From positions 632,369-696,368 of the forward strand of contig MU008178.1 of assembly GCA_010909165.1 (NCBI GenBank): DNA of 64,000 nucleotides. The letters run 5' to 3'. Position 1 is the stretch's first letter; each line of letters begins with the position of its first letter. This document shows, in pieces, positions 22,957 to 59,810 of this stretch. Below the pieces are notes generated by a model that did no database searches, had not been told where the DNA came from, and was given only the letters and a program-made list of their open reading frames with translations. A program made the position numbers and the translations under genes. This DNA is from Anthoceros angustus (taxonomy: Eukaryota > Plantae > Anthocerotophyta).

Positions 22957-23895
22957 GCTCAAGCATTGAAAAACTTGATGCGCATCTTCTACTTCGCCAC
23001 ACTTTGCCTACATGTCCACTGCAAGTGCCCACAAGTGTGTTATCTAGCCGTCCTCTCCACAATCAGGAGTGCACCGCCTGCCTTCCGTAAGGCACTTGGC
23101 TTGCACAGCCTTGGAAGGCAAGCAAAGGTAACATGGTTGCCCACAATCGCCCTCCTTCTCCATTTGTCCATCTAATAAGCGCCTCTTGGCCAAGCCATGA
23201 TTTGCATACCCAACTATCGTGGCCCATGTCACGACATCCTTTCTCGCCTAACCTATCGAAAACCGTGTTTGCCTCTTCGCTTCACCACGCTATGCATATG
23301 TCCACCAGATTGGCAATAAACAAGTTCGGTGGAATGTCACTGCAACATATCATGCCGCACTTTCGCTAGATTCTGTCCACAAAGAAATGCACAAGCTTGA
23401 AGGGCTGCTAAAGATGTGGGCATCCGCCTTACACCAGCGACACATCGTGATAGTAAAGTTGTATCGCCTCATTAGGCTCCCCATGTAGTATGCGGAGATT
23501 ATTGAAAACCACATGAAGGGATTTGGTTGCCCACCCTCCCGTAGCCTACCTCCGATACATACATCCGCAAGATATGGTTCCCCAAGTATGTGATTGACTG
23601 TACTCCAAGTTTGACCTGTGAGATCATGAACGCGTCATCCCACAACCATGTCCTTCTTTATCCGCACAAAGTTTTGTGCACGTATATATAAGCATCGAGG
23701 AATAGAATAGTCTATCTCGCGGTATTTTTGGTCCTTGGTCTGGTTTCGAAGGATGTTCCTTGGTCCTTGGGAAAAGTAGTATGTAGATAGAAACCTTATT
23801 TCGAGGGCCGAGGAAGGCAACTTCCTTGAACCATGGGAATTCCGCTTTTCTAGATATTGCATGTAGGGCTATATATGCATGTTAGGTAGACCTAG
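22957..23895 (-). pseudogene. Duplicate of the PPR fragment and flank (copy 2)
   Basis: 22957-23715 matches ~18636-19370 and 23735-23895 matches ~19960-20125. Confidence 0.85.
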
Positions 23896-28500: not shown

Positions 28501-28549
28501 CTCCAACAGCGGCTGAGACTTTATGAAGCTGTGAGGAAATCGGTGCGTT

Positions 28550-31500
28550 TCGATGGGGTATTGGTGGCGTTCTCCGGCCATCCTAGCTGTTCGAGTCCAT
28601 TTTGCAGGGGCAGCTGGGGCTCAGTTCCAAGCTCTATCCCGCATTGGCGTCCGCATACCCTCATGAATGGGGTTGCTGCGAAAAAGAATATCAGACCATG
28701 ATCATACAAAGGCAAGGCTATGTCAACACAACGAGATTGAGATTGATCATCACACTCACCTGATGGATCCCGCATGGGAGAGTCATGAAGGAGCCTGGTG
28801 CATGGGAGTTCTTGAAGGGTGCGTAGGTATTTCACCACCAAGTCCATATCTACATGATTCCTGCAAGGAAATGGCAGAGGGTTTATAAATACGCTTCTAA
28901 CAAGCTTACTTGAGTCTGTCACAGAGCACAGACCTGAAGGAGCTCGAAGCCATCGGCGTGTCACCAATGTCTGAGAGTTGATCTCTCCGCACTGCCACAC
29001 GATCAGATGCAGCTCAAGACACAACATCCTAGATAGACAGCACCTCAGAAGCCGGCAGTTCAGAGTTGTGAACAATTGTTTGGACAAACACACGAGGACA
29101 CAAGGCATAACTGTACCCTCCTCCATTTGAGACTCTAGGTCAAATCGAACAGTGGTGTTTGTACATCCTTTACACACCTCGGTAACCTTTGGACCGCCCC
29201 AATCTTATTTTGACTGTCCTCCCAAGTAGCCCTCATCTCTTAGGGCGTGGCCCCCATAACCTCCTCCAAACCCTGCAGTCAATTTTATCTCAGCAACGTT
29301 GGTCTACCTACGAAACCCAGGAACATCACGGTGCCTGCAGAAGGCCAGTCAAACCTAACACTTTGAGGAAGGTACCGAGATGGAGGATTTAGGTTGCTGA
29401 AGCTTGATGTAACCGCCTCTGCAAGATAGCCCAAGAACTTCCAAAGTTGCAGACACGTTGAATTGCATGCACATATAATCCCAATGCCTATCAATTCCAA
29501 CCACCGTCGTCAAACCAAAACTTCAATGTAAAGAATTAAGGTCCATACAGACTACCAATACTGTTTGCCCGACAGCCTCCGCATGCTGAACACACATAAC
29601 AAAGGGCTTACCACTGCTCATTCCCACTTATACCACCAAGTGCAACACACACTTGTGATCGTGACACAAAAAGCCACCATTCTCCAAGTGGTGACGGTCA
29701 TATATAAATAGGATGCTGCGGTTTACGTGCTCCACCGGCTCTTGTCTACCTTGTACATCAGTTGCATCAGCTACACCAAGACTACGATGCTGACTGATGT
29801 CTACCAGAATTGAACATTCACAGCTTGTACTAGAAGAAGTACCTTGCAGAGACCATCACGCACTCATACAATGTCCTTCACACCGACAGTTGCTTGACTG
29901 CCCAACAGAACCAAACAATACTCGCGCATCGAGGATATTGGAGTTTTGGTAATTACTGGAATGCATGAACAATATGATCTTACTCCAGTAGAACAAGGTC
30001 ATGTAGCTCATAATCCCCAACTGAAAGACCTGTTGTGACCTCTGAGCCACTACATCAGCTGTGAAAACTTGAATCACAGCATACACAAGCACTGTTGGCT
30101 CCAAGACCAAAGTCCACATGCACGCACATAAAACCCCACTGGTCCACAGCATCACTTACATCCTCCGCTGTGGTATCATTCAGAAAACCACTGGATGGTG
30201 GTTCACCTTACCACCTTTCCAGTAGATCCTAAACGAGCCCCTCTGATCACCTTTACATGATCTCCGTCTTGAAGAATTAACGCACTTGTGACTCCCACCG
30301 CAATGGTTTCCTGTCACATCAAAGGGTTAACAAGTAGAGTGATATACTGTGTTAACCGATCTGCTACATCCTGCAGCTGAGTGAAACGAAAAACAAAACT
30401 AGAGGACATCAATTACCTTCAAAATCCTCTGGACGGATGTATACTGTGTCATCAACCTTTTCCACATTTCCCATCAACTGCAAGTCTCCTTCGATAAGCA
30501 CAACAGATCCCCTTTCATGAGGTTGCCCTACGCTTTGAGGACAATGCTGATGGAAGCCCCATTGCATACATCCGCCATCTTCTCATTGGAATACACCGCT
30601 CAAGAATTGCTATGACAAGTCACACGCTACGCCAAAGGCAAAGGCAGCATTCTACCTTCACGGAACCATGGTGAACTTCGCCACGTTAAGATCCAGCAGT
30701 TTTGAGCAATCTCATCTTTCACGCCACCGCCACCCTACAAAGATCGGACGGGGCTCCAAGAGTCAAGTGACCAAACTACAAACTACTCAGAGAAGTAAAA
30801 ACAAGAAGAGAAGATAACCGCAACTTGGCAATCAAAGCCACAACCTCGTGATTCCGTCCGATTGTGCAAGACCTTGAGCAACGCTAGCTCGCGGTGGAAG
30901 ACGCTGGAGCAGGAATGGCATAAACGCATCATTGAATGTTCCGCACGACAACCGTAGCAACCGACATATTTACGACCAAATGTAACTCGCAGGTATCAGT
31001 CAACTTCATTCCAACCATCGCCGGCCCCAGTCGCATGACGGCAGATTTCCAAGTCGCTTGGGAGATGATCCACCTTCCCAAAGAGATATGCATCGGATTG
31101 GCTCACTCTTCATGGGCCAATGAGGTAAAGGGAGGCGGCCATCAAGATCGAGAGGAAAATCATGTCACCGGTGCAATCTCAACGCTCCTCCTCATCCACC
31201 ACCTCTAGCTTCTCCCCAGACCACCTTCTCGATAGCTTGCCAAGCCGCGGAGGTCGCGGGGTGCCGAAGGTGCCGCAGATGCCACCTTGGCATTTAGCCC
31301 AACCTTGTTACCTTCAACAGAAGTGTAACCACCACAGTTCTAATCGATGAAAGCTCATCAACATCGTGAACTTGCTCTAACTTGGGGACGAAGGAGAATC
31401 ACACGACAAGCCATCTTCAATATGCCCATGTTTCTTGACCTCGGTCTCCGCCCACGACGGCTTCCTCATCATCATCCTGCCTCCGAATCGGCTTCCTTGC

Positions 31501-41200: not shown

Positions 41201-41392
41201 CACTGTTTCATGAAAAGCTTCTTTGTGAACTTGCGGATGCACAATTTGTTGCAACAAGGCTTTGAAATCCTCTCCGAATCGCCTTCACTTTTCCTCAAAG
41301 AGACACCGCCGCGCTTCACACGGCCCACATCGGCCGCTAGGCTGAAGGTATCGGCCAAAGGCTTGGATGGAAAGTGACGGAGACCGCCCGGT
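38250..41392 (-). pseudogene. Sola-like (DUF7869-type) DDE transposase, main part
   Basis: CCNKLC...CCLKA Cys-rich region; VKIPK; IGMD; LDNTCRENKNQLLF...FEKVKVGFLLVGH[T]HDQVDQMFS (39300-39470). A probable C-terminus continues left of the CACTA at ~25250-25315. Superfamily assignment is tentative. Confidence 0.7.
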
Positions 41393-44300
41393 CGCGAGGT
41401 TGCCAAGACGCCTACATGGTACATATGGCCCACATGACAGCGGGATAGCCGGGATCGCCCCACCATGGTTATGTAGTTCACTACCGGATCGCCCCATGGT
41501 ATACGGGTGGCCCCACTTGATCCGTGATCGGCCCGGGGCTGACCTATGGACATCATGGTCCATGCACCGGATCACGGCATCCCAGGCTGGGATATGGGCA
41601 TCCCAGATACCAGCCATGGGACATTGCGATTACGCCCGGGATTGCCGGATCAGGCGACTGGCCGCAGCCCACCACCCCAACGCCAAGACACAAGAACTAA
41701 GGTACGCATGCAAAGAATGAACTCGATGTATGCTTGCTTTTATATACTACGTTTGGTTAGGCATTTTCATTAACCAAGGACATGAAAACATATCCTTTAT
41801 TTTGATTGGCCCATAGTCCAAGGATTCATTTCCTTTAAATACTGAAGATAGGAAATAGATCCGTTATGAACGGATAACTAGGTAGGCTAGATAAAGCCAC
41901 TTAGTTTAGGTGTGAAACCAAATCTGGACCCAAACCCAAACAAGGCACGATCAACGTGGGAGGAGCACCACCAAGCGTGAGGTTGCTTTCGCATCATGGC
42001 GCAAACGCCTGGGAATCGATTTGGGCGTGGAGATGATGGCGAGCGGGAATGAGGACGTGGGGCAAGGAATGAGGGTAGTCTTCAAAATCGTGCACGAGGC
42101 CATGTTAGGAACAGTGTTTCACATAGGGTTTGTCTCCGAACCCCATTTTGGCCCCAACCATCCGTAAATGCACATGTCTCATTTCACTGCTTGTGATTTG
42201 CGAACCCCATGCCCCATGCATCCGAGCCCAAAAGAAGACCTATGCCCACCGTCCGCACAAATGACGGACACACCTTTGTACCAAGTGGCTTGGATGATCA
42301 TGACTTATGCTCCAAAGAGTCGGAGGCACCGAACGCCCGCGACTTATACTCCAAAGAGGTGCACACCGGGTTTGGAGAGGGTTGCGCTAATACTTGTGTA
42401 GGCAAGCACTTTCGCCTGCTTGCTTGTGCACACTTGCCACCGCACCAACACTCACATCAATTCTCTTTTCAAACCCCGTGATTCGGCAATCCACGCAGTG
42501 CATACCGCCTGACCCCTCCGTGCTGGAGATAAGCCGCACTTAGATCCGCAGATTAGGCCTCGCGCAAGAATTGGACAAGGTAAAGGATGGTGAGGCCTCC
42601 TCAACCGCTCTTGATCAAACTCTTCGTAGCTTACATTTCTTCTTGTCAAGTCCGCATCGCTTTCAACCTTAATCTATCCATGGGTGGCACATGGAGCAAG
42701 TCGATCTTAAATTCAAAATCTCGCGAAGCTTGGCTATCCTCTGAACACCTAGTCAGGCACCACAAGGCCAGGGTATAGACATGTCCTCCTTCAGAGCCTC
42801 ACCGAAATACTCACCATTTGGTCAAAACCCCACCGGGCGACCACTCTTTCTTCAGATATCACTGGCTCACTAGGGCTAGCAGTGCAGATGCTCTTATACT
42901 TGTGTTCGACTACATCCGATGTGCTTTCATTACTCAAGGAAAAATCATCTATTCTATTTATTTTCTTGCTTCTCGCAAAACATTGTGAAACATTGTCGCC
43001 TTCAAAAGGTTGGCCATTAGAAACCACCATCATACATGTCGAATTTTGGAAAATGTAGCTCATCTAGAAACCAAGGCCTATGCATCTATAATGCATCAAA
43101 CTCGAATGAGCCGACATTTGGCAACAATCAAAGAGATCCACCGCAAGTCATCTAAGAGGCACATAGAGTAAGGCCAAAAGGTTTTAGATGTTGTATACAA
43201 AGCGAATGTGGGAATATAACATCAAGCAACAAATGATTTTGAAAAATAATATTCATGACTTTACGCCTAGATACCGAAATGATTTACAAATTTTTCAAAC
43301 CACTAAAAATCAACACTCCATCCTGGTATTGATACGCCTCTAGGTTGCTTGACAGTGGAGTTGTTACAAAGTTTTCAAAGCGCCAAAAACAAGCAACCTA
43401 TCCTAGTACTAATCCGACCCAAGAGTGCTTAACCGAAAAGATTCTCAAAGCACCAAAGTCAAGCACCTCATCCCGGTAATGATCCGACTCGGGAGTGCTT
43501 AACCTTGGAGTTCTTATGCCATTGAGTCTATCTGCACCTATCCCAGATGTTTTAAGACAAACAATATATAGATGCGCCGGACGTCCGGCGATCCACTCCA
43601 CCATTTCCATCTCGCGGACGCCCACAAGATTGGGGTCTCAGAAATGCGCCGGACGTCCGGCGCAGACTCGCCAATGTGCCGAACGTCCGGCGATTGTCCA
43701 ATTCCTTCTATGTTTTTCACTCTAACAATGGAGATCCTGTGGTTGTGTACTCACAATGCACCGACGTCCAGCGCTACTTTTAGAGTCGTAGTTTGGTCCT
43801 CTCGAGATGGCCATGATCGCTATCGGTTAATGTTCTTCACAAGGACGTCCGCCAGCTGTTTTTCGCTGCAATTGCTACTTTGTTGGTTGCCGGACGTCCG
43901 CAGTTTGGCTTGTCGGACTAATTTTGTTTGGTTTTGCTCACTGCTCACCCCGCTAGGAAGTACTATCGCGAAAGAGGTGTTTAGGATTCCTAGCACGTTA
44001 AAAATCCTTGAAATCCCTTCCTTGTGAAGGTGAAATCCATGAACCTTCTTCGGCTTAAACATTAGCGTAAGTATTCACGAGAAAATAACATGGTCAATGT
44101 CTTTCAAGACATGTCTAAAGAGTGGTTTTGCTAAAGATGATGCATTTTGGCCTGCTGGGGGTCATTTTTGGTCTTTAGGGACCCAAACCCCTTTAATGGA
44201 GAATAACCCCAGGCCGAGAGACGCTGTTTAGGGAGGAAAGCACTTTGTGAACCCTTGCAATCTGGAAATCCAAGATCGATTAGATCTGTGTGTTTTTTGC

Positions 44301-44430
44301 TCAGCGTGCTTCCCTACAAGGCGCCAAGGCTCGATTTACAGGCTCCCAGCCAGCGCAAACTGGGCTGGCCAAGAAATCTTCAAGAAATCTCGTGATTCCT
44401 GCCATTGCGCAGCGGATCCCTTTATTTCGA
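41393..44430 (+). repeat. 5' LTR (~0.9 kb net), interrupted by a hAT-like insertion
   Basis: 41393-42111 plus 44227-44430 match 54074-54965; near-identical from ~41680 onward and more diverged in the first ~300 bp. Confidence 0.85.
42112..44226. mobile_element. Non-autonomous hAT-like DNA transposon in the 5' LTR
   Basis: Absent from the 3' LTR; ends CAGTGTTTC...GAGACGCTG (imperfect TIR); 8-bp flanks GTTAGGAA and TTTAGGGA each differ by one base from the empty-site GTTAGGGA; internal GCCGGACGTCCGGC palindromic repeats at 43570-43910. Confidence 0.8.
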
Positions 44431-45119
44431 AGACTCAATCTTCAAGGGCGACACTCCAAGGCGGAGTGGCGACATTTGAGGCGCCTCCTCTAGCTGGGGC
44501 GACGCCATTTTGGAGCCTGGAGCACAGCTGGGCGATTACACCTTCAGCTGTGGCCCAATCCAGCTCACTGCATGCTCCCAGCTGGGATTTCGAGGTCTTC
44601 AGGGCATTCCTTCACCTTTGCTGGCTTCTTACAGTGATGGCGTGCTAGAGAGGAGGCCAGATCCAGGCCTGATCCATGGGCTTTCCCAAATACAGCTGGG
44701 AATTCAAGATCTAGCGAGCGCTTTTCTCATCCCTTTTCGATCTTTGCAGCAGCAGAGCTTGTGGGAGAGGGAGGACAGACCTTGCCACTCAAGATCTCCA
44801 TTTCAGGCGGGCTACAGCATGGTCTGATACTTTGGTTTGATTCCAAGATCAGGAGCAGGCGGATTGCAGCTTTGCCAACATTTCTGATTTTGGGGATTTT
44901 GGGATTTGCTGAGCGCCCCTTTCACTTTTGCTGGTTTCATACAGTAACAGCGTGCTGGAGAGGAGAACAGATCTCACCATCGAGGTGTCTGGCTCAGCTT
45001 GGTCAGAAAGTGGGAGGGGAGGATCACGTTTATTTGACACTCACGTTTCAATTTCGGATGTGTGAGTGCCGTTTGTCGTTGCTGACCTTTCTCAGAGGCT
45101 GAGGCGTGGGTGCTGACCC

Positions 45120-45430
45120 CTAGACAGTCCCATTTTAGGGACTGTACAGTCCTAATTCCAAGGGCTGTGGGAACAGTCCCATTTCAAGGATTGTTGGGAG
45201 GAGAGCCGGGACTGTTGGGACAGTCCCACTTAGGGCTGTCCAGCCCCATTGCTGGGACTGGGACAGTTCCTACACAGTGCTAGGACTGCTGGGACAGTCC
45301 CACCTCGTGGGCTGTCCAGTTCTATTGCTGGGACAGTCCCACTTAGGGCTGTCCAGCCCCATTGCTGGGACAGTCCCATTGCTGGGACAGTCCCACTGTG
45401 GACTGTCCAGTCCCATTGCTGGGACTTAGG
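45120..45430. repeat. GGGACAGTCCC quasi-palindromic repeat array in the retroelement 5' UTR
   Basis: GGGACAGTCCC / GGGACTG / CAGTCCC motifs repeated more than 10 times. Confidence 0.85.
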
Positions 45431-45607
45431 ACAATCCTACCCTACACCAGGGCTGCTGGAGTGATCCAAGCGTAGGGGTAATCCATTTTGCTGCGAATTG
45501 CTAGGAGGCGCCACACCGCTGGCTGTGGAGTGGAGTGAGTGGAGGATTTCGTTGTTCTTTCACATTTAAGGGAGTGTTGCTGATCTTATGCGTTAGTCAC
45601 ATGGGTG

Positions 45608-47126
45608 ATGCACCCCGAGGGACATGAGATCAGTCCCCGTTACCGCTTGAGGACACGGGACATCCAGCAGCGGACCACTCCCGAGCGGGTACAGGCCAGA
45701 AGGAGGCGTTCTTTTCAGCATCAGCAGCAAGCACAGGAGGAATTGGCAAGCGGTTTAGAGGAGCCTGGCACGCCACCTGCCACCTTGGAGACAGCAACCA
45801 GCTGGTCTCCATTTGCAGATCTCAACACCGGCAAAGAATCATCCGACTCCTTGCCGGAGATCGGGACAAACTTGTCCCAATTTGAGCCTGAGACAAGATC
45901 GAATCAGCTGATCTTTCGGAGGATTCGGACACCATGGAAGGTGGAGGACCCTCATACAGGGACAGATTTTCCGGAGGCCGGCACTCAATCTGCGAGATTT
46001 TCTACCGCCCCTCAACGCTATCATCACCGGGTCGTTCAAGCATGGCGCTTATAATCACCAGACATGTTTGAGCAGCTTTCAAGCTACGACGACGCTGGAT
46101 TTGTATGAGGCACATCAAGCGGATTTGTCTTCTACCATCTCCACGGTGAATCCCCAGCTCAAGGAGCTGCAGCTTGCCTACAATGGCAAGTTGGCCACGG
46201 CCGTGAGTGCCCACCAGGCCAAGATTGCTGACGCGCCACCGCTCAGCCACCATCCGTGGTGAGTCTAACGGCCGAGAGGGTGGCAGCCACGGTTAGTCCC
46301 GAGTTCATCCAAACTCCCAAGTACCTTAATCCGTGGAGGAGTTCATGGCCATCCTCGAGAAGGCGTCCGCTCAAGACTCGAGAAAATAGCTGAGCTGGCC
46401 AGTTTCGCTCGCAAGAAGGGTGAGACTGTCCAGATGACCTTTCGCAGGCTCCAGAAGCTGCGAGAAGGCACTGGGATGTTGACTGACCAAGAGGCAGCCG
46501 AGAAGTTTCTTACGGCGTTGGAGGGAGATCCATTGTTCCACTTTCAACTTGTCACCTCTTTGGTGGACAAGTATGGGGACAGCTACACCCTGGAACAGGT
46601 CCATGAAGAAGCGGAGCGCAAGGAAATCGCGTTTTCAGCGTATGCTTCTCGACACTCCAAGGCCTTCACGCACTATCAAAGCATGTTTTCCAGCAAGGGG
46701 AACACATCTGGAGGCGTGGGATCAGGGGTTTCAAGCCCATTCAGGCCAGTCAAGTCGTCGCAGCCACCTCCACGTATTGCAATCGCTGTGGCAGCCGGAT
46801 CATTTGGCTCGTGCAAGCTTCCTGTGGAAGGTTTGCATTGTTCCCATTGCAACAAGACTGGCCATTTGGTTACATGCTTTCAAAAGCATCCGAGCGCAGA
46901 TATCAAGAAGGCCCCACACCTTCAGCCGGGACTCCCACAACAGCTGGCGGAATGCGTCGAAGGGCCGATCACACGGAATGGGGCCAAGGCCAAGGAGCGG
47001 CTAACCGACAAGATTGCCGCATTGGAGGCAGCAGTGGCAGCACTTACAGCTCACTGGAGCCCCAGCGCTGTGGCAGCACCTCCACCTCCAAGCCCGCCGG
47101 ACAGCCATTTTGGCACCTCACCGTGA
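45608..47126 (+). CDS. Gag-like region with zinc knuckle (frameshifted)
   Basis: ORFs 45605-46054, 46068-46262 and 46434-47126; CSHCNKTGH..C CCHC-like knuckle. Confidence 0.75.
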
Positions 47127-48069
47127 GGAGGAGAGGAGGATTATGGCTGCCACATGAGGCCTGTACTGTCCATCGCCTTGTGGATTCCACGCGATTCCCC
47201 CTACCCGCCACATGGGTAGGATGTGACTTGAAGAAGGCGCATTTGGATGTTGCACCGGGATGCCGATCCCTTACTCGGCAACAAAGAGCGAGGGCTGCCA
47301 TGCCTAGATCCTTTGCTCCGCTGCCGGCGTGGCCATCCTGCTGGAGGGATCATCTGGATGGAGCGCCGAGTGAGCAGCCTCCACATTCGAGTCATGGGGC
47401 ACCGCAATGTGCCACGATCATCTACCACCGACACCCGACCTTGATCATGCGCAAGGTGTTGGAGACTCCTTTGATCTCCCTCCAGGACATGGGAGTTGGG
47501 CGTGCCAGCAGTGCTGGGCTTGGCAACTGAAGTCTCCGCTATCCCATACTGGATCGCCGGAGAGTCCCACGGACACTTCCCCATGCATGGGGCTGCTGGG
47601 GACACCTCAACAGCACACCACAGCTCCATGTTCAGGCTGTCAGAGCCCCAAGATTGGGATTCTCCAGTCCCATACTGGGTGGAGAGTCTCAACATCGACG
47701 CAGCCCCCATACTGGATCGCCGAGGAATCTCAGCCTTGGTCCTCCCCACTGGACCGACAGCAGTCCCAATGCCAAGCACCTTCAGCTCCATGCCAAGGAC
47801 TGCGAGGAGAAACCCATCACGGGACTCTGCAGTCCCATACTCGGACAACCGGACCGCCGGTGGATCCACATGGGCAGCCTCACGACGTTTCAGCTGGGTA
47901 TTGCCCACCACCATCGACCATGTTACGATGGTGGGAGTGACAGGCAGGCCACCCACAGCCATGAGGAGGGCCAGCCACTTGAGGCGGTGCCTATGCGTCC
48001 CAAATACATGGAGTACTCGGAGCACCGATTCATTCCCACCAATCGCATGAATGTGCGAGTGAGCAATGC

Positions 48070-48380
48070 CATGGTGGACAATAGGGAAGGCCATGTCACG
48101 GTGAATGGCTATGCTCCCAAGCTTGTGCTCTTGGACACGGGGCTGCGTGATCATTGGCAAGGCTCGCCGCTAGGTTGAACTTGCGAGGAACACCGCCATT
48201 CACCTGGAACATCGTGACAGCCGCGTGGAACCTGTGTGGAGACTGTCAGCCACCGCCATCACGCTCAAGCGGACACGCCATGACATTGGCCATTCATTGC
48301 CTTGTCACGACAAATGCTAACACGATGTCCTTCTCGGACAGGAGTTTTTGTTTCCACCGCATCAGCGTGGACAATTGACA
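48070..48380 (+). CDS. Retroviral-type aspartic protease
   Basis: HVTVNGYAPKLVLLDTG (catalytic DTG). Confidence 0.75.
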
Positions 48381-48749
48381 GCAAGCTCACTATCGCCCGA
48401 TTGGCGTAGTGGAGGTCGCCATGGCGCACTTTCCCTTGAATGCATGGCGGATTGATCGAGGTCGCCACCGCCCTAGCTACTCCAGTCCTTATGGCGACCA
48501 TCTGTGCTGTCCCGAGGTGCTCCCACCGGCAGCCAGCATTTGAGTGACATGCTGGAGCTTGCCGACTTGGATCCAGATCACGAGGCCGACCATTTGGTCA
48601 CAGCCGCCTAGGAGACACTCCACCATCATTCGAAGTGTCCGACCTGGTTCAGCAAGCTCTTCCACGAGTGCAGCAAGCTCTGCAGCTCCAGACTCATGGC
48701 ATCCTCCACCACGGTGAGCCAGATCATCACGTGGACGGTGCCCACTGCA

Positions 48750-49690
48750 TTGCTGGAACTGCTTTGGGGGTATTTGCACAGGTCTGGAGGCTCTTTTGCT
48801 GAATGGCATCTTGGTCAGTCGTTACATTTACTATGACCGTTGTCCCAAGGCGCAATGCATTGCTGCTTTTCGCCTTCAGGAGCTGCGCGATTCCCTTCAC
48901 TACTCCCCGCCAATGCTATCTCAGGCACCTTTTCTACAATGCCCCAAGACATCCAGCTGTTGCAGCGCCGCCACATTCAGCTCCTGGCCCCCATCCACTT
49001 CGTGATTGCGGGATGGGAATGCCAAGGATTTTCTCAAGCCGGCACAGGGGGAGGATTACAAGACCCACGAACCGCCTTGTTTTGGGACCTTCACCGCATC
49101 TTGGTGGATGTTCAGCACTTCAGCCCTGGCTGCGCTTACTTGCTGGAGAACACCCCGGCGCAGCTGGACACTCGGCTGCAAGTTCGCCAAGACATGGCCA
49201 TCATCCAGCAGCATGTGGGCACGCCCTTGCTCATGGATGCCGCCCTGTGTTGGCGCTTTGCTCATCGCTGAAACTATTGGACCAACCTGGCCCCTCAACC
49301 TTTGCTAGAGTTGGTGGTCACCCGCACTACTCGGGACCCCACTCTCAAGCTCTCCGATGTGTTGGACCCTTGGCATCAGCCACGGGCTGTGACAGGTGCC
49401 GAGCGTGCACCTTGGTACCGCACCAACACGCCGGGACAGGCCCGGCAGACCCTTCCCACCCTAGTGAGCTTTCCTGGCTCCTATGCCTACAGGGGACAAG
49501 GGGCAGGTCTGCTATTCAACAGCAACACCCACCAGTGGGAGGAGCCCAATGTGGAGGAGCGGGAGCGCGTCATGGGTTTCCACACCCATGCCACTGCGGC
49601 TCCCCAAGTTACCGAGCGTCACCGCCGGGCCGCCTTGGGCCGCGCTATGGATCTGTCAGCCCTCACTTGGCTCATCAGCATATGTCTGGC
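48750..49690 (+). CDS. C5-cytosine DNA methyltransferase domain (DNMT3-like) within pol
   Basis: Motif I LELFGGICTG; motif IV VIAGWECQGFS; motif VI YLLENT; motif VIII AHR..YWTNL; motif IX EERERVMGF; motif X RRAALGRAMD, all in canonical order across a few 1-2 bp frameshifts. Confidence 0.92.
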
Positions 49691-50039
49691 CTTTCAGCTG
49701 TTGGCATTCCCGCGGAGCTCCCACCCGCCCCGAGGTCCTTTTCCCACATGCTGCGCCGACGCTGTCCATTTGCCCTTCCCGGGATACACCACCTGGTCAT
49801 ATTGGCTTGATGCAGGGGGAGGTGGCATGGCCATCCCAGTGCATTCTCAGCATCAAGCTCGTGGACATGGGAAGTCAACTGGGATCCGAGTATGGGATCG
49901 TCCAGTATGGGACGTCGAGTAGGGACTCCCAATTCACAGCACCCAAGCCTCGCTTATGTGCCGAGACTGTTGGGTCATGGGGCCCCAACTCACAACAGCG
50001 TAGCACGATACATGCCCTTTGCTCCAATACCGGGACTGT

Positions 50040-51310
50040 TTGCCTTCTCCATGCGAATTGAAGCGATGTAATGTGACCACCTTCCGCATCAATCTGACCA
50101 GCAAGGAGCCTATCTACAGGAGGCGCTACAGGCTCAGCAAAACTGAGTGGGACATGGTGGATGCACGTCAAGAGTTGCTTGAAGCCGGGCTCATTCGCCT
50201 CTAGCTCCCTATCTGCCACGTGATGCCTCCCAAGAAGGACAGAACGGAATGTGGACAGAGAAGAGGATGTGCGGAGACTACCGTCCTATCAACGCTGACA
50301 CAGGATCGGTACCCCATGCCAACGCCGGAGGAGATCTTCGACAACATTGGCAAGTCTACCTACTTCTCGATTTTGGATTTGCGTCAAGGCTTCAACCAGG
50401 TGTTGCTGAAGAGGACATCAAGAAGACAGCCTTCCACGGCTCTCAGCAGGGAATGGCTGGTGATGCCCTTTGGCTTCAAGAACGCGCCGGTGACTTTCCA
50501 GCGCGTAATGGACATAGTACTTGCAGGTTCAGCGAACCTCATGTGCTACATTGATGATGTCCTGGTCCACAGCGAGGACTTTGAGTCTCATTTGGTGCAC
50601 CTGGAAGATCTGTTCAAGAGATTGCGAAAGGCGCAGTTGACATGTCACCCGGCCAAGTGTGAATTTGGCATGGACACCGTGGCATACCTTGGTCACAGGG
50701 TTGTGCCTGGCGGCGTCATGCCTCATGCTGCCAAGGTACAGGCCATCTTGCAGGTGCGAGAGCCCACAAACCTCTCTGCCCTGCGAGCTTTCCTCGGCCT
50801 ATGCAACTATTACCGAGTATACATTCGGGACTTCAGCCGAATTGCCAAGCCGCTGAATGACTTGCTGCGGAAGGATGTTGTTTGGGCCTGGACAGAGAAG
50901 ACCCAGCAAGCTTTCGACACGCTGAAACTGAGCTTGACTAAGCTCCTGTCATGGCTGACGACTTCCAAGCCGTTTGTGGTACATACGGAGCATCATCTAG
51001 TTGCTAGCCCAACAAGATGAAGATGGAAAGGAGCGGGTGGTTGCGTATGCTTCACGCAGCAACAATCGTGAAGCCAACCATGAGCTACCAAGGGAGTGTC
51101 TAGTCAGATGGGCGGTCATTTTAGGCCCTACTGTATGGCAAGCCCTTCACGCTAGTCACTGACCATCAGCCCCTCAAATGGCTGATGACCAACACTAAGT
51201 TGAGTGGGAAGCTTGCAAGGTGGGCCATGATCTTGCAGGACTATGAATTTCAAGTGGTGCACCGAACGGGAGTCACACACCAAAACGCGGACACTCTCTC
51301 TCGGAATCCC
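50040..51310 (+). CDS. Reverse transcriptase and RNase H
   Basis: RMCGDYRPIN, DRYPMP, LDLRQGFNQ, MPFGFKNAP, YIDDVLV, FLGLCNYYR, VVAYASR, TDHQPLKWL, LARWAMILQDYEF. Confidence 0.95.
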
Positions 51311-53040
51311 AGTGCTAGTTGCGAAGATGTTACAGGCCGACAGGACCAAGATGATGGAGATCTGCAGCATGTGTCGGTGGCTGCGATGGTGGCTTTGACA
51401 AGCCTGGGTGACTGTCCCGAGTATGGGACAGTCCCGAGTATGGGAGTCCTTAGCATTGAGCACATATGCTGGGGACAGGAGGTCCAAGGACATCTGGGAA
51501 GACTCCGAAACTCTCCTATTTGTCCAAACAGGACAGTTTGGATCAGCCATTGAGCACGCTGAGCAAGAAAGAATTCGCCAACAAGTATCAATGGCGTGAT
51601 GGGCATTTGCCGAGGAGGCTGACCAATGGCTGGAACGATTGGTGCCACCACCTGATAGGGAGCAGCTCATCCGTCGAGTGCACGACATGGGCCACTTTGG
51701 AGTCAAGCGTACTTACAGTTTGCTCCTCCCATTTCCATTGGCAAGGGATGTACGCCCAAGTCAAACAGTGGCCTGTTGCAAGGACTACGTCAGGGTGAAG
51801 ACCTCCTTCACCATCCAGAACCCTCAGCTGCACCCTTTGCCTATCATGGGACTGTTCTTTAGGTGGTCTTGTGACTTGTTGGGTGAACTACCCAAGACAC
51901 CACGAGGGAACGTGTACATTCTCGTCATGATGGAGCACTTCTCCAAGTGGGTGGAGGTGGTGGCTGCCGGACAAGAGCTCCAAAAGCACCGCCAGCCTTT
52001 CTTCAGAATGTCTTTGAGTCGCTTTGGGAGCGGCCGAGTGCTTGACGGATCAGGGGTCTGAATTTCGAGGGGAATTCCAAGACCCTCTGGATGCGCTCCA
52101 TCGACCATCGCAGACCAGCCGAGACCATCCTCGCTGATGGCTGGCTGAACGGATGGTGCACCGGCCGAGTCACACACCAAAACGCGGACACTCTCTCGGA
52201 ATCCCGGTGCTAGTTGCGAAGATGTTCTGACAGGACCAAGATGATGGAGATGCAGCATGTGTCGGTGGCTGCGATGGTGGCTTTGACAAGCCTTGGTGAC
52301 TGTCCCGAGTATGGGACAGTCCTTAGCATTGAGCACATATGCTGGGGACAGGAGGTCCAAGGACATCTGGGAAGACTCCGAAACTCTCCTATTTGTCCAA
52401 ACAGGACAGTTTGGATCAGCCATTGAGCACGCTGAGCAAGAAAGAATTCGCCAGCGCGCTTCCAAGTATCAATGGCGTGATGGGCATTTGCTGAGGAGGC
52501 TGACCAATGGGCTGGAACGATTGGTGCCACCACTGGCGATAGGGAGCAGCTGATTCGTCGAGTGCACGATGACATGGGCCATTTTGGAGTCAAGCGTACT
52601 TACAGTTTGCTCCTCCCACATTTCCATTGGCAAGGGATGTACGCCCAAGTCAAACAGCAGGTGGCCTGTTGCAAGGACTGCGACAGGGTGAAGACCTCCT
52701 TCACCATCCAGAACCCTCAGCTGCACCCTTTGCCTATCATGGGACTGTTCTTTAGGTGGTCTTGTGACTTGTTGGGTGAACTACCCAAGACACCACGAGG
52801 GAACGTGTACATTCTCGTCATGATGGAGCACTTCTCCAAGTGGGTAGAGGTGGTGGCCCTGCCGGACAAGAGCTCCAAAAGCACCGCCAGCCTTTCTTCA
52901 AATGTCGAGTCGCTTTGGGGGAGTGCGGTGTCGGATCGAGTGGAATTTGAATTCCAAGACCCTCTGGATGCGCTCATCGACCATCGCAGGACCAGCCGAG
53001 ACCATCCTCAGGCTGATGGCCTGGCTGAACGGATGGTACA
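51255..53040 (+). repeat. ~0.9-kb tandem duplication of the RNase H-end/integrase region
   Basis: ~51255-52155 is repeated at ~52155-53040; the junction shares TGGTGCAC microhomology. Confidence 0.9.
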
Positions 53041-53560
53041 GACCATCAAGAAGGGTCTAAGGAAGCTCTGCCTTCAAATGCCCAAGAGAGGGACTTGGCT
53101 CTTCCTTACATCGCCATGGCTACGTATGAGTCGGCATGCCTCCTTGGCACATTTCAGTCCCTACTTCTTGCTGTTTGGGAGGGAACCCATGCCGCCTAGC
53201 TCAATTGCTAAGCAACTCTATGAGGTAGTGGATCCGGATGATCCAAAGAATGGGCAACTATTGGTCAGCCGCGGCCGCTGCAAGCCATGCCGATGGCCAT
53301 GGCTAATTTGAGGATTGCCCAACATCGGGACACCCTTAGATATGCCCACACTCGCGGCGCACCCAAGCTCAAGAAATTTCGTGGGGACTTTGTTTACTTG
53401 CGAAGGTGGAGACACCCTTGACACCACCACCGACATGTGCTGCGAGTTCAGGAGGTCAAGGAGAATGGTGTGCTAGTGCTACAAGGATCAGATGGACGTA
53501 CCACCAAGGATCACATGAAAAATTGTGCGCCTTGCCATTTGCCCAACCTGGATCCAACCA
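52400..53560 (+). CDS. Integrase (H2C2 zinc finger plus rve core)
   Basis: HDDMGHFG...CKDC; WSCDLLGELP; EHFSKWVEV; HPQADGLAERMVQTIK; SPYFLLFGREP. Confidence 0.93.
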
Positions 53561-53598
53561 TTGTCACCAGTGATTGGGTACCTCCGGCTGATTACCCA

Positions 53599-53733
53599 TG
53601 CCAGATTTGCAGGAGGACAGACGACCCTGAGCTGATGCTGCTGTGCGACCACTGCAACGGCGGATACCACCTATTTTGCTTGCAGCCGCCTCTCTCCGAG
53701 GTGCCGGAGCAGCTGTGGTATTGTCCACTATGT
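53599..53733 (+). CDS. PHD finger at the integrase C-terminus
   Basis: CQICRRTDDPELMLLCDHCNGGYHLFCLQPPLSEVPEQLWYCPLC is a complete C4HC3 with the conserved W. Confidence 0.95.
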
Positions 53734-54073
53734 GCTGCCTCTCCGGCCTCAAAGACCGCACACACAAGCTTCAATGGCTGGGGGGGGGTAGGAGCAGATG
53801 CTCTCCCAGCATACTTTGTTCTTTGCAAGGGGGACCTTTTAGACTCATACTGGATCGCCAAACTTTGGCCCATTCAGCATGACAATCTGGACCGCGATAA
53901 GTGGGCACGTACAGGAGGCAAGGAAGCCACAACAGATCCTGCCATGGGACATGGCGTTCCACAGGATCGCTGATCGGCCTGGGACATGGCCCACCTCACA
54001 GTTAAGATTGGTGGAGTTGCCCGAGACAAGCTCATACTGGACACCGGACTCCCAAACTTTTCACGCTTCACGA

Positions 54074-54965
54074 CCGGAGGTTGCCAAGACCGCCTGATGA
54101 CATGGGCCCACGACAGCTCATACTGGAGCCCCCGCCATGGGACATGTAGCTCACCGGGACAATGGGACTGTCCCAGCCATGGGACATGGCGGCCCCAGCC
54201 TGGACCGAGATCGCAGCCATGGGACATGGTCCCACATGGGATCGCCGGATCGCCATGGGACATGGCGCCCCACACAGCCAGATTGCCATGGGACATTGCA
54301 GTCCACCCGGATTGCCGGACCGCTGACCGTCAACCACCAGCCCAACGTCAAGACACAAGAACTAAGGTACGCATGCAAAGAATGTGAACTCGATGTATGC
54401 TTGCTTTTATATACTACGTTTGGTTAGGCATTTTCATTAACCAAGGACATGAAAACATATCCTTTATTTTGATTGGCCCATAGTCCAAGGATTCATTTCC
54501 TTTAAATACTAGTTATAGGAAATAGATCCGTTATGAACGGATAACTAGGTAGGCTAGAAAAAGCCACTTAGTTTAGGTGTGAAACCAAACTGGACCCAAA
54601 CCCAAACAAGGCACCGATCAACGTGGGAGGAGCAGCACCAAGCGTGAGGGTTGCTTTCGCATCATGGCGCAAACATCAGCTGGGAATCGAGTTGGGCGGA
54701 GCGTGGAGATGATGGCGGCGGGAATGAGGACCGTGGGGCAAGGAACAGGGTAGTCTTGAAATCGTGCTCGAGCGCGCGGTTAGGGAGGAAAGCACTTTGT
54801 GAACCCTTGCAACTGGAAATCCAAGATCGATTAGATCTGTGTTTTGCTCAGCTGCCTACAAGGCGCCAAGGCTCGATTACAGGCTCCCACGAAACTGGGC
54901 TGGCCAAGAAATCTTCAAGAAATCTCGTGATTCCTGCCATTGCGCAGCGGATCCCTTTTGGATCA
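54074..54965 (+). repeat. 3' LTR
   Basis: Matches the 5' LTR; ends ...GATCA followed by the TSD CCGGT. Confidence 0.85.
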
Positions 54966-55625
54966 CCGGTCCAAACTTCTCAATGGTTGGGGGTGTCTGG
55001 AAGACATTGTCCTCATCTGCATTGGGCGTCCCCGCATCTTGGCCGGAAATAGTAGTGAACAATCCCGACTGCCTCCACTCCAAGCACCGACACCAACTTT
55101 CCTCCTTCCAGACGGGCTTCTATCTATGGCAGTAGAGGTTCGTGTTCCCGAAGTCGGGGAACATAGCTGGGCATACTGAGGGCTGAGTGAGTTCTTCTCC
55201 ACCCTGGACCTGCAACACGCACATCCTGGGATCAGAGCCACTAACACAAACCTATGCCAATGAGTATGACGGGGGCGAAGACGACAGCTCCGACGACTCA
55301 GCTATCGGCCAAAGAATACATACTTTGTGGCAGGGAGAGTGGCAAGGACTTTGCATTTGCCTGGCGAGACGGAGGGGCCAGCCGCGCTTGCCTTTCACTC
55401 TGTTTACGGGGATCAGGTACTCTTTGGAACTGTGAAACATCTTGATTTTGCCCGAAATCTTCGTCCGCTTGACCGCACATCTACATTGTCAATGACATAG
55501 CAATCGTTGGTATCGGTCAAGGAATGAAAGGGCACATAACACGGAAACCCACATCGCCGGCGTCGGAGGTGAACTGGAGCATTGTGTTGGACTCGTAGCT
55601 CAAGGTTACGACTACTACGCGACAA
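54966..55625 (-). pseudogene. 5' part of the Sola-like transposase ORF
   Basis: ...DEDNVFQTPPTIEKFGP joins in frame with 41392 after removal of the LTR element; the upstream limit is approximate. Confidence 0.6.
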
Positions 55626-55899: not shown

Positions 55900-58800
55900 T
55901 AAACAAACACGTAGTGGTCACACTACCTTGCAAAATGATGTGCAATCGACAATGCGAAGGACATCGCGAACGCTGTGTGGAACCGTATGTTGGGTATGGG
56001 TTAAAAGAACAAAACGCATGCACATATATTCCTCCTTGTTCCTCCATACATAGGATAAGGACAATAACTCGGACCTCAGGCGTTACGGATCGCGAAATTA
56101 GGGTTTCCCGCCATTCCTTATAAACCCGAACAATTGAGTCCTTCTTCCGAGCCGCAGCAGGGCGAACCGAGCTCTTCCAACGCGGAGCGTCTGCGATTCA
56201 AGCGAGGCCACGTGGTTTTCCCAACAATTTGCCGTCGGCGACCCTCGCCACCGACTCTCCATCCTTGAGGACGACAGTGAGAAATTCCTTGTCCGAAATA
56301 GAATTGGTGCTTGCCTAATCCGGATTGAGCGTGTTTGATGCCTATCTTTGGTGCTACAGACGATGGCGAGCGACGCCAGAAGAAGGACCTCCCTGCGGGC
56401 CTAACCACGGAGACTTGTTGGAGAAGCGGAGGCGTAAGAAATCTAAAAGCAAGAAGGAGGCGAAATCGAGAACCACAGATCCTCCGCGACACGATCTGGC
56501 CGGACATGCTTTCCAACCTTGAGCAAGGTGGAGGTGGAACGGAAGGGGCAAAGTCCGGTCACTCAATTCAAGGCAAGCACCACAAAGACAGGTTGGTGGT
56601 GGAGAGAAGTCCGGCTTGTCCAAAGGATTGAGGGTGGGAAATCCAGATCAATTCCCTCCATACTCGTATGAGGAGACTGCACATGGAGGCACATGAACCA
56701 GCTTGAGGACACTATGCTTCGAAGCAGGAATGGTTGTTGACACAAGAGGAGCCGGATGAAGAAACTGCTATGGACGCCGAAGCTTTGGGTTTTGGGTTCA
56801 ACGGTGCAGCAAACCAGAGAGCAAGGCGGATGGGTCCTGGGCAACTTTGGATGGAGGCGAGACCCGTAATCGGATTCTTTGCACTTCAAGGCCTTAAGTG
56901 GACGCATTGCCGCATCGTCGATGATTACACATGTATCTGAAAGTGGCATGTTTGCACAGGAAGAAATGTGAGCCAAAGGAGTTGTCCAGACTTTTCGAGC
57001 GTTGAGCTGAGAATGTGAGTACACTTCTTAATTCCAGAGCATTCGCCACCGTTGATTGCATTGATGCAGGCTAACGGTGTGCTTGCTGTGATGGACGAGT
57101 GAGAGAACATTTCTGTGCTTGTGTGAGGTGATTACGAGCTCCATTATCCGTCATCGACGAGAGATGTCACCGAGGAGGACAAGACAGGGACTTCAAACTT
57201 CGACGGAAGTAGAAGACAATGAGGCGAGTTCGGACCTTGATGAGGAGGATGGGCCTATTCCGAGTTCTGGGTCATTCGGATGCGGAGGCATTTGAAGAGG
57301 ATGATGGGGAGGCCGAGGGTGATGGAGGGAGGTTTGCGCAGGCTACGATTTTCCAAGGTCGTCGCCATCCAAGCACCATGGGAGGAGTCCCTGCTACATG
57401 GAAGAGGGGAGCGCCGACGCCGGCGCCCTCGACTATGGTGAGGAGGAGGGGGCGCCGGCATGCGCCTCCATACTCGTATGAGGAGGAGGGGGCGCCGCAT
57501 GCCGCCCTCTGAGGAGGCGGAAGAGGGGGCGCCGGCATGCGCCCTCGACTATGGTGAGGAGGGGGCGCCCCTCCCGAGGGTGGATGCGCGCATGCCGCCC
57601 TCTGCATGTAGAGAGGAGGAGGCGCCGGCATGCCGGCGCCCTCGACTATGGTGAGGAGGAGGGCGCCGGCATGCCGGCGCCCTCGACTATGGTGAGGAGG
57701 GAGGCGCCGGCATGCCGCGCCCAGAACCTGTGGCTTGCTGGAGGAAGGCGTGGGGCCATGAGAAGCGGAAAAGCATGCATGATGAGGAAGGTGGTGGGCA
57801 CAGCAGTCCGGAGTGCGGAACGCTCGGTAGGAACAGGAAAAAGTTCAAGCGTCCCAAGGGAAACAAACACGTAGTTGGTCACACTACCTTGCAAAATGAT
57901 GTGCAATCGACAATGCGAAGGACGCCAGCGAACGCGGGTGTGGGTATGTTGGGTATGGGTTAAAAGAACATCGCACAAGACCACATATTCGTCCTTGTTC
58001 CTCCATACATAGGATAAGGACAATAACTCGGACCTCGTTGCGCGTTTATTCTGGACGGCGCGAAATTAGGGTTTCTGCCACTCCTTATAAACCCGAACGG
58101 TGGAGTCCTTCTTCTCACAGTCCGCAAAGGGCGTAACGAGCTCTTCCAACGCGGAGTCTGCGATTCAAGCGAGGCCACGTGGTTTTCCCAACAATTTGCC
58201 GTCGGCGACCCTCGCCCACCACTCTCCATCCTTTCGGAGGGGCCTTAGTGAGAAATTCCTTGTCCGAAATAGAATTGGTGCTTGCCTAATCCGGATTGAG
58301 CGTGTTTGATGCCTATCTTTGGTGCTACAGACGATGGCGGCGGTGATAAGAAGGACCTCCCGATGCGGCCTAACCACAGACTTGTTGGAGAAGCGCGGAG
58401 AAGAAATCTAAAAGCAAGAAGGAGGCGAAATCGAGAACCACATCCTCCGCGGATACCGATCTGCCTCTGGACATGCTTTCCAACCGCTTGAGCAAGGTGG
58501 AGGTGGAGCAGGAAGAGACAAAGTCCGGGTCACTCAATTCAAGGCAAGCACCACAAAGACAGTTGGTGGTGGAGAAGTCCGGCTTGTCCAAAGGATTGAG
58601 GGTGGGAAATCCAGATCAATTCCCTCCCATACTCGTATGAGGAGCTGCATGCGGAGGCACATGAACCAGCTTGAGGACACTATGCTTCGGGAATGGTTGT
58701 TGACACAAGCAGAGGAGGATGAAAGCATGCTATGGACGCCGATCTCAAGCTTTGGGTTTTGGGTTCAACGGTGCAGCAAACCAGAGAGCAAGGCGGGATG

Positions 58801-59810
58801 GGTCCTGGGCAACTTTGGATGGAGGCGAGACCCGAATCTGGATTCTTTGCACTTCAAGGCCTTATGAAGTGGACGCATTGCCGCATCGTCGATGATTACA
58901 CTTTATGTCATTGGCATGTTTGCAGAAGAAATGTGAGCCAAAGGAGTTGTCCAGCACTTTTCGAGCGTTGAGCTGAGAATGTGAGTACACTTCTTAATTC
59001 CAGCATTCGCCACCGTTGATTGCATTGATGCGACTAACGGTGTGCTTGCTGTGATGGGCAGTGAGAGAACATTTCTGTGCTTGTGTGAGGTGATTACGAG
59101 CTCCATTATCCGTCATCGACGAGATGTCACCGAGGAGGACAAGGCAGGACTTCAAACTTTGCGGAAGTAGAAGACAATGAGGCAGAGTTCGGACCTTCTG
59201 ATGAGGAGGATGGGCCTATTCCAGAGTTGCTGGGTCATTCAGATGCGGAGGCATTTGAAGAGGATGATGGGGAGGCTGGGGGTGATGGAGGGAGGTTTGC
59301 TGCAGCTACGGATTCCTCCCAAGGTCGTCGCCATCCAAGCACCATGGGAGGAGTCCCTGTGCTACATGGAAGAGGGGGAGGCGCTGTCGGGGGACGCCGG
59401 CATGCCGGCGCCCTCGACTATGGTGAGGAGGAAGAGGGGCGCGGCATGCCCGCTCGGATGCGGAGGCATGCAGCGCTCTGAGCGGAAGAGGGGGCGCCGG
59501 CATGCGCCCTCGACTATGGTGAGGAGGGAGGCGCCGGCATGCCGCGCCTCCCGAGGGTGGATGAAGGCGCCGGCATGCGCCCTCGAGGAGGAGGGAGGCG
59601 CCGGCATGCGCCCTCGACTATGGTGAGGAGGAGGGCGATGCTGGAGGTGGAGGTAGGCATGCGGCTGCAGCTCAGCTTGCGGTTGGAGGAAGGCGTCGGG
59701 GGCCATGAGAAGCGGAAAAGCATGCATGATGAGGAAGGTGGTGGGCACAGCAGTCCGGAGGAAGCGTTCGGTAGGAGCAGCGGAAAAAGTTCAAGCGTCC
59801 CAAGAACGAC
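55900..59810. repeat. ~1.95-kb tandem duplication with internal ~36-bp GC-rich repeats
   Basis: 55900-57855 matches 57860-59810; the unit GGCGCCGGCATGCCGGCGCCCTCGACTATGGTGAGGAGGAGG is repeated at 57410-57720 and 59390-59640. Confidence 0.9.

Follow-up and report, generated by a model that had tools for sequence, protein, structure and literature searches.

A Ty3/gypsy retrotransposon carrying between its protease and its reverse transcriptase (RT) a cytosine-5 DNA methyltransferase (DNMT) domain that is, by profile and predicted fold, of the DNMT3 type, and carrying a PHD finger after its integrase, occupies positions 41394-54965 (+ strand) of the DNA analysed here, a stretch of 64,000 nucleotides from contig MU008178.1 that will be referred to, at its full length, as the window. 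The copy found in the window is dead and decayed and has no function of its own; in intact members of its family, the enzyme is probably made as a part of Pol and would methylate the new DNA of the element itself. DNA methylation is the main weapon of plants against transposons, and the usual roles are thus reversed when the transposon itself encodes a de novo methyltransferase.

A DNMT3-type methyltransferase domain within pol

The methyltransferase domain, with motifs I to X, extends over positions 48718..49697 (+ strand), and its recognition is based on the Pfam family PF00145, on the alignment to relatives, on the comparison of a family profile with solved structures and on colinearity with the related protein P0006. 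As the initial annotation had described, six motifs of C5 methyltransferases can be read on the strand of pol, between the DTG of a protease remnant and the YIDD of the RT. Motif I (FGG, 48763-48771) lies in a frame that opens at 48718, and motifs IV (GWECQGFS, 49011-49034, with the codon of the catalytic Cys at 49020-49022), VI (ENT, 49146-49154), VIII (AHR/NYWTNL, 49260-49289), IX (EERERVMGF, 49554-49580) and X (RRAALGRAMD, 49623-49652), all on the + strand, share a frame that opens at 48837 and is identical to that of the RT. The profile check proposed at that time gave a clear match of PF00145 to the window's own translation, with 32.1 bits (the Pfam cut-off being 22) and an E value of 1.1e-7. 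Furthermore, P0006 (820 aa) aligns in a single frame to positions 48888-50918 of the window, that is, from the DNMT through a linker and into the RT, over 701 columns with 44% identity (E 0.0), and neither an intron nor a separate boundary is visible around the DNMT stretch. The relatives P0003 and P0006 carry motifs I, VI, VIII, IX and X in one frame, unlike the copy in the window, in which a frameshift near 48886 separates the frame of motif I from that of motifs IV-X and an in-frame TGA (49269-49271) cuts motif VIII; with motif I in another frame and a stop inside motif VIII, this copy of the DNMT is a pseudogene. According to the alignment to relatives, its motif VIII is also one residue shorter than theirs, and the residue preceding the catalytic Cys is Glu, the canonical one being Pro.

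The type of methyltransferase was addressed with a profile built from the window and five relatives, which was run against the sequences of solved structures and retrieved 56 of them at E<=1. The best scores corresponded to DNMT3A (1.1e-19, 73.8 bits), DNMT3B (3e-15) and DNMT3C (1.6e-14), far ahead of tobacco DRM (6e-7, 31.8 bits), M.HhaI (3e-6, 29.6 bits), Arabidopsis DRM2 (6e-4) and DNMT2 (13.8 bits), and no sequence named DNMT1 or CMT was present among those 56. When all solved structures were searched by phmmer with P0003, the closest intact relative (43% identical to the DNMT domain of the window), the matches comprised 29 distinct sequences, without exception DNMT3A, 3B or 3C. DNMT3A aligns colinearly, with a motif order that is not circularly permuted, and DRM was matched through its C-terminal part only. 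At the level of the fold, an AlphaFold2 model of P0003, obtained from an alignment of 51 sequences, reached a mean pLDDT of 87.5, and the matches that Foldseek listed for it in the PDB were all DNMT3A, 3B or 3C (best E 4e-17), with target TM-scores of 0.76-0.85 for the listed chains that comprise little more than the catalytic domain and lower ones for longer chains. Identity between the family domain, represented by P0003, and the solved enzymes is no more than about 20%, and Pfam scans of the window and of relatives revealed neither a PWWP nor an ADD domain. Taken together, profile and predicted fold show the domain to be of the DNMT3 type, in the sense of a ranking of matches and not of membership in a clade, and bear out the DNMT3-like character that had been proposed from the motifs. 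Two other identities were considered and ruled out: that of a DRM, by the unpermuted order of the motifs and the weak score, and that of a bacterial methyltransferase, by its weak score.

Anatomy of the retrotransposon

The element shows the order long terminal repeat (LTR), gag, protease (PR), DNMT, RT, RNase H (RH), integrase (INT), PHD finger, LTR, and it belongs to the Ty3/gypsy type in that direct LTRs flank gag-pol and the RT precedes the integrase. Comparison of the window with itself revealed direct repeats at 41613-42098 and 44215-44423 that match 54285-54958, and a more sensitive alignment carries them out to 41396 and 54077. On this basis, the 3' LTR spans 54075..54965 (+ strand, by self-alignment) and the 5' LTR consists of two parts on the same strand: the first (41394..42098) aligns to 54075-54772, with 24 mismatches over the 475 aligned bases of its core, and the second (44215..44430) aligns to 54769-54965, with 3 mismatches over 190 aligned bases. 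Overall, the divergence of the LTRs by substitutions is about 4%, which would represent a few million years if the rates commonly used for plants hold for this host. The hexamer CCGGTC is found just outside both ends, at 41388..41393 and at 54966..54971 (+ strand), the right copy standing at the independently estimated end of the LTR, and constitutes a candidate target-site duplication; in a search space of this size, chance alone would produce about 10 matches of six bases.

What separates the two parts of the 5' LTR is a foreign insertion of 2.1 kb (42099..44214, no strand assigned) that is not present in the 3' LTR. Its word depth in run X2, which is DNA-like, amounts to 165-1676 per bin, compared with 30 or less in the flanks, and it is almost absent from run X1. 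No Pfam domain was found in it. With its 63-nt repeats (43292-43504) and, further on, palindromes of CGCCGGACGTCCGGCG (43572-43692), this insertion probably represents a non-autonomous repeat of high copy number. Short repeats of the TGGGACAG/CCATGGGACATGG type are located in the long leader (45139-45460) and at the LTR starts (53940-54290), where they blur the boundaries of the LTRs.

Upstream of the DNMT, only remnants can be recognised. That of gag (46269..47126, + strand) is an open frame of 285 aa whose translation contains a CX2CX4HX4C zinc knuckle (CSHCNKTGHLVTC), and has no Pfam match at E<=0.01. That of the aspartic protease (48075..48455, + strand) is distributed over three frames, with DTG at 48134-48142 and DVLLGQEFL further downstream, both by translation. 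No protease family was detected by Pfam in the frames of the window, a phmmer search with the protease and gag of the window against the 159 family proteins described below retrieved nothing, and the gag-PR regions of relatives found nothing by tblastn upstream of 48705. The protease is therefore called by eye on the motifs DTG and DVLLGQEFL; relatives in the clade of the window do have Pfam protease matches upstream of their DNMT.

Downstream, RVT_1, RT_RNaseH, Integrase_H2C2 and rve follow one another in that order according to Pfam, all on the + strand. The RT, with its YIDD motif (50082..51020), scores 87.7 bits with RVT_1 and is 54% identical to the RT of P0006, and the tblastn match of P0161 starts at its first position, 50082. 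The RNase H remnant (51001..51553; PF17917, 43 bits) is matched by tblastn in pieces in two frames. A tandem duplication of 0.88 kb (51255..53037, with units 51255-52157 and 52154-53037 that are 90% identical by blastn, gaps included) affects the integrase region, which therefore harbours a partial first integrase copy (51600-52061) as well as the integrase proper (52481..53311), composed of an H2C2 zinc finger (PF17921, 59.7 bits) and an rve core (24.1 bits, under its cut-off). The latter is followed by a C-terminal extension (53422..53973) with the PHD finger at about 53599-53733 (PF00628, 48.4 bits). The solved PHD fingers nearest to it are those of CHD4, Lid/KDM5, JARID1D, WSTF, BAZ2A/B, ORC1b, UHRF1, ATXR5, PHF21A and AIRE. 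Pfam finds no chromodomain at the C-terminus of the integrase, the PHD finger being there instead, and for lack of a chromodomain the possibility of a chromovirus was ruled out. Thus, the Pfam domain order, the profile and the colinearity with P0006 all agree with the interpretation made initially from the motifs, i.e., a Ty3/gypsy element with a DNMT3-like domain between protease and RT.

A green-lineage family with two architectures

At E<=1e-3, a profile search over 1.84 billion representatives retrieved 5880 proteins; 1545 remain with a limit of E<=1e-10, and E<=1e-30 leaves 476 clusters. The DNMT matches of the protein search are 32-45% identical to the window. The RT, RNase H, integrase and PHD finger of the window were then located in 159 proteins. 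The DNMT stands after RNase H and/or before integrase in 106 of them, 44 of which display the complete order RT-RH-DNMT-INT-PHD; it appears alone in 50 and before the RT in the remaining three. There is, for instance, the partial protein P0013 from Chlamydomonas eustigma, which shows the order RH-DNMT-INT and ends within the integrase. Beyond the PHD finger, P0007, P0009 and P0011 continue for some 350 residues, conserved among the three by eye, and Pfam detected nothing in this stretch of P0007, the one scanned.

The window was placed by a FastTree phylogeny of 156 DNMT domains (the fragment P0001 and two proteins with DNMT matches shorter than 250 residues were left out) in a clade of 14 members with a support of 0.992, which holds all three proteins with the DNMT before the RT and none of the 106 with the other order. 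With midpoint rooting, this clade forms one side of the deepest split in the DNMT tree. In six of the 11 clade members scanned (P0139, P0144, P0131, P0153, P0157 and, weakly, P0156), the DNMT is preceded by a CCHC knuckle, a protease or both, and the cluster mates P0161, P0162 and P0163 agree with them; P0006 and P0151 show the DNMT followed by the RT, and in P0075, P0080 and P0120 the DNMT is all that Pfam detects. P0139, of 2188 aa, is a complete CCHC-PR-DNMT-RT-RH-INT polyprotein. The order gag-PR-DNMT-RT is thus seen in this clade wherever flanking domains were found. Five of the members (P0151, P0144, P0157, P0156 and P0131) and the cluster mate P0162 come from the zygnematophyte alga Closterium (sp. 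NIES-53, -54, -65 or -68). As far as sequence comparison goes, these results show that the DNMT of the window comes from a large family of gypsy elements with a DNMT, spread over the green lineage, and, within it, that its element is part of a sub-clade of its own, set apart by a DNMT located upstream of the RT and held in common with Closterium. The two architectures share a backbone, since the integrase of the window is 41-44% identical to the integrases of the DNMT-PHD polyproteins and its PHD region is 46-53% identical to the same region of the RH-DNMT-INT polyproteins. The DNMT would either have moved within the common backbone or have been captured twice.

The residues on which catalysis depends were counted over the same 156 domains. 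The catalytic Cys, the Glu of motif VI and the Asn of motif VIII are present in 156 of 156, the Asn of motif VI in 150, and the two arginines of motif VIII in 155 and 153, respectively. The second Gly of motif I is found in 137 domains (the other 19 being gaps) and the Gly of motif IX in 143 (with 12 gaps). This pattern is not a measure of selection, but it argues for a catalytic function selected throughout the family. From the conserved Cys, the Glu of the ENV motif, the RxR arginines and the glycines of motifs I and IX, we infer that the DNMT of the family would be catalytically active.

Sister copies and decay of the window copy

A second, less broken copy is present in the same organism. 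A contig of 3213 nt from run X1 covers positions 47027-47505 and 47580-49998, i.e., from the protease to the end of the DNMT; a second contig of the same organism covers the region from the RT to the PHD finger and skips 875 bases of the duplication; and a third one joins position 54748, in the LTR, to 44228 by way of 38 unrelated letters, which replace the 2.1 kb insertion. Motifs VIII and IX are covered by two more contigs, also from this organism and more diverged. In the DNMT stretch, the 3213-nt contig differs from the window by 16 substitutions and 36 gap letters, the latter grouped in 13 insertion or deletion events. The length differences of the sister contig fall at both break sites, so that the breaks of the window are not shared in the same form. 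Inside the domain, 13 substitutions separate both copies, six synonymous and seven non-synonymous, which are too few to show selection. With copies that differ by about 1.5%, the family must have been active in fairly recent times.

Decay is also visible elsewhere in the element: the pieces of pol are distributed over all three frames, and the units of the 0.88 kb duplication have diverged by 2.5% by substitutions alone, with 22 gaps against 21 mismatches. In addition, the observed/expected ratio of CpG is 0.58 in the element, compared with 0.76 in the whole window, a depletion that fits methylation of the element, whoever the writer may be.

Possible role of the enzyme and alternative explanations

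Intact copies would produce the DNMT as a part of Gag-Pol, to be subsequently released by the protease or left fused to its neighbours. It would in this way be placed beside the RT in the particle, where it might methylate the new cDNA or, later, the fresh insertion, as was proposed in 2018 for the DNMT3 borne by DIRS elements (PMC5890265). The PHD finger, for its part, may tether the integrase to chromatin unmethylated at H3K4, as chromodomains do for chromoviruses, and such a steering of the integrase would parallel the role of the ADD domain in host DNMT3. Together, DNMT and PHD finger would bring the reader-plus-writer logic of host DNMT3 into one transposon.

Several observations weigh against self-methylation by a Pol-made enzyme, and some of them concern the window copy itself. 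It is unable to express the enzyme, as it has the frameshift near 48886, the TGA at 49269-49271, a pol scattered over three frames, a 5' LTR interrupted by 2.1 kb of inserted DNA and the 0.88 kb internal duplication, although some of its frameshifts could be assembly errors, because insertions and deletions are about as frequent as substitutions between the repeat copies. The LTR ends were searched for TG...CA termini accompanied by a target-site duplication, with 0 matches, and neither a primer-binding site nor a polypurine tract was recognised by eye. Without such termini and a recognisable primer-binding site, the target-site duplication is plausible and not proven; of the element bounded by such a duplication that the initial annotation had proposed, the LTR bounds stand, and the 6-bp CCGGTC repeat at the ends is kept only as a candidate. 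As for the chromatin reader, most of the solved relatives of the finger read the unmodified H3 tail (H3K4me0), and the same specificity is presumed for the finger itself. Regarding the enzyme, the catalytic Cys follows a Glu in the window, as it does in 97 of the 156 domains, and a Pro in 48, which makes the canonical Pro-Cys the minority form in the family. Finally, in the only published activity test of the nearest described element, KnitGypsy-Dnmt3 from the alga Klebsormidium nitens, its domain produced no methylation in yeast (PMC5890265), a result that its authors regard as inconclusive, since human DNMT3B also failed there.

Self-methylation by a Pol-made enzyme can be extended into a broader proposal, which is put forward here tentatively: land plants and the algae closest to them, the Zygnematophyceae, might share a living gypsy lineage in which the DNMT3 marks the element's own new DNA and the integrase PHD finger selects H3K4-unmethylated chromatin, the DNMT having moved or having been captured twice (PR-DNMT-RT in streptophytes, RH-DNMT-INT elsewhere in the green lineage).

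Among the alternatives, it is conceivable, though unlikely, that the DNMT has been kept without methylating double-stranded DNA, be it as a module that binds DNA or chromatin or as a methyltransferase of RNA, of RNA:DNA hybrids or of single-stranded cDNA. The Glu found in place of Pro next to the catalytic Cys, both in the window and in 97 of the 156 domains, would suit this idea, as would the position of the DNMT directly upstream of the RT in the clade of the window and the failure of the KnitGypsy-Dnmt3 domain to methylate in yeast, and methylation of RNA was already raised by the 2018 authors for a DNMT borne by LINE elements (PMC5890265). However, that failure was common to human DNMT3B (PMC5890265), and both sequence and fold bring the domain closest, among solved structures, to DNMT3A, 3B and 3C, which act on DNA, and not to DNMT2. 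Moreover, the catalytic Cys, the Glu of ENV, the RxR arginines and the glycines of motifs I and IX are kept in nearly all of the 156 domains, which counts against a pure binding module, as this would not need them. A different possibility, and quite an improbable one, is that the enzyme acts in trans on the chromatin of the host, either blurring the methylation that marks transposons or methylating the surroundings of insertions, with an indirect benefit for the element. Methylation of the host genome derived from retrotransposons is raised in the discussion of the 2018 report (PMC5890265), and the PHD finger could bring the products of Pol to nucleosomes; nevertheless, the methylome of K. nitens is not unusual in spite of its having such elements (PMC5890265), and it is the element itself that is depleted in CpG relative to the window.

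By comparison, the idea that the DNMT stretch is a one-off capture of a host DNMT3, or a misassembly, nested in a single copy has practically no probability left and is considered refuted. Although only one copy can be fully read in the window, and this one is broken, its DNMT runs into the RT in a single frame in colinearity with P0006, with no intron or boundary of its own; sister contigs of the same organism carry the PR-DNMT and the RT-INT-PHD portions and two further, diverged ones cover motifs VIII and IX; and the PR-DNMT-RT order recurs in Closterium proteins and in the 2188-aa polyprotein. A nested host fragment is ruled out by the colinearity with P0006 together with the sister copies, and the agreement of the latter with clade members of matching order sustains the initial view of the domain as a regular component of the element.

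Other features of the window

Most of the window consists of repeats. Besides the element, it contains a frameshifted pseudogene of the PLS-type pentatricopeptide-repeat (PPR) proteins (27712-28582, - strand), with 37 protein matches at 26-40% identity that carry the E-motif and DYW Pfam domains; the 24 of them that are named all belong to land plants (21 by organism name and three by Gb_ identifiers). PPR proteins of the PLS class are essentially confined to land plants, and this pseudogene, the one clue to the host that the window offers, makes a land plant the most likely host. K. nitens was rejected as the host, as none of the DNMT matches in the protein search goes beyond 45% identity although proteins of that alga are public. 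A fragment of a copia-type retrotransposon (15859-17005, + strand) presents matches to gag_pre-integrs, rve and SH3_retrovirus over three frames. No other protein-coding match was obtained from the 124 remaining open reading frames of the window (15 + 109), in which only the copia fragment and the PPR repeat were matched, and Rfam gave no match anywhere in the window. Two large tandem duplications, at 6479-10100 (unit of about 1.8 kb, 93.7% identical) and at 55901-59804 (unit of about 1.96 kb, 86% identical, with GC-rich short repeats of the GCCGGCATGCCGGCGCC type inside), gave no match to a protein family. There is, furthermore, a pair of direct repeats of about 0.75 kb (18634-19382 and 22957-23720), 88.6% identical and 4.3 kb apart, possibly the LTRs of a further element of small size.

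Comparison with known systems

Elements of this kind have been known since 2018, when a gypsy-borne DNMT3 was published by de Mendoza et al. as KnitGypsy-Dnmt3 from K. nitens (PMC5890265). It was later cited in PMC12344493, and a preprint of 2026 (10.64898/2026.05.21.726589) refers to it by the words "streptophytes (Gypsy-DNMT3)"; the element of the window is a further member, most likely in a land plant. According to the 2018 report, KnitGypsy-Dnmt3 resembles it in having an intron-less, non-rearranged DNMT3-type domain in the Pol open reading frame of a streptophyte Gypsy element, and in the conservation of the key catalytic residues, which is likewise seen in the family of the window element. 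They differ in the host, which is a charophyte alga in one case and most likely a land plant in the other; in the repeats, arranged as in DIRS elements in KnitGypsy-Dnmt3 (PMC5890265) and as two plain direct LTRs in the window; and in the PHD finger, a term with no instance in that paper's main text (PMC5890265). No sequence named after K. nitens appeared among the DNMT matches, and the comparison is accordingly one of descriptions. In the same report, a survey of seven land plants is said to have shown no expansion of DNMT genes in any of them (PMC5890265). Within the scope of a full-text literature search, which subscription journals and figures fell outside, there was no report of DNMT-bearing gypsy elements from land plants, and none of a PR-DNMT-RT order or of the pairing with a PHD finger; this is in line with the initial annotation, to which DNMTs were not known as a recognised feature of land-plant LTR elements.

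The RT-RH-DNMT-INT-PHD polyproteins of green algae and metagenomes (e.g., P0007, P0009 and P0011), for which no name was found in print, have a homologous DNMT (32-39% identical) and a likewise homologous integrase and PHD tail (41-53%), but with the DNMT between RNase H and integrase instead of between protease and RT. Host DNMT3 enzymes (animal DNMT3A, 3B and 3C and the DNMT3 of plants, bryophytes included) are the best match by profile and fold and show the same motif order, and they, too, combine a PHD-type finger with a DNMT3 catalytic domain. Unlike them, the element has no detected PWWP or ADD domain, its PHD finger lies some 1300 residues away, after the integrase, its catalytic Cys is preceded by Glu and not by Pro, and its family is about 20% identical to the solved enzymes.

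Other retrotransposons are known to carry DNMTs, as is the case of SymbioDIRS-Dnmt3 and SymbioLINE-Dnmt from Symbiodinium, the first of which methylates CG de novo in yeast; they belong, however, to other classes (DIRS and LINE) and to another host lineage, and represent independent acquisitions according to their authors (PMC5890265). Chromatin readers in the Pol of Ty3/gypsy elements are not new either, with the chromodomain of chromoviruses and the PHD finger already published in green-algal gypsy elements, for example Gypsy-7a_cRei of Chlamydomonas; in contrast to the element of the window, which has a DNMT and lacks a chromodomain, they are not reported to carry a DNMT (PMC9940879). A parallel in composition is that of the EpiLTRs of Euglena and Cymbomonas, LTR elements that also unite a cytosine methyltransferase and a chromatin reader, but that add an adenine methyltransferase and a chromodomain and whose DNMT is, according to the preprint, sister to DNMT4 and not to DNMT3 (10.64898/2026.05.21.726589). 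Naturally intact copies, if they exist, would allow a direct test of the self-methylation of retrotransposon cDNA. Against this background, in which transposons with a methyltransferase of their own are known in print from dinoflagellates and one charophyte alga, the window indicates that DNMT-bearing gypsy elements reached, or persisted in, what is most likely the genome of a land plant, and that enzyme and PHD finger go together in them.

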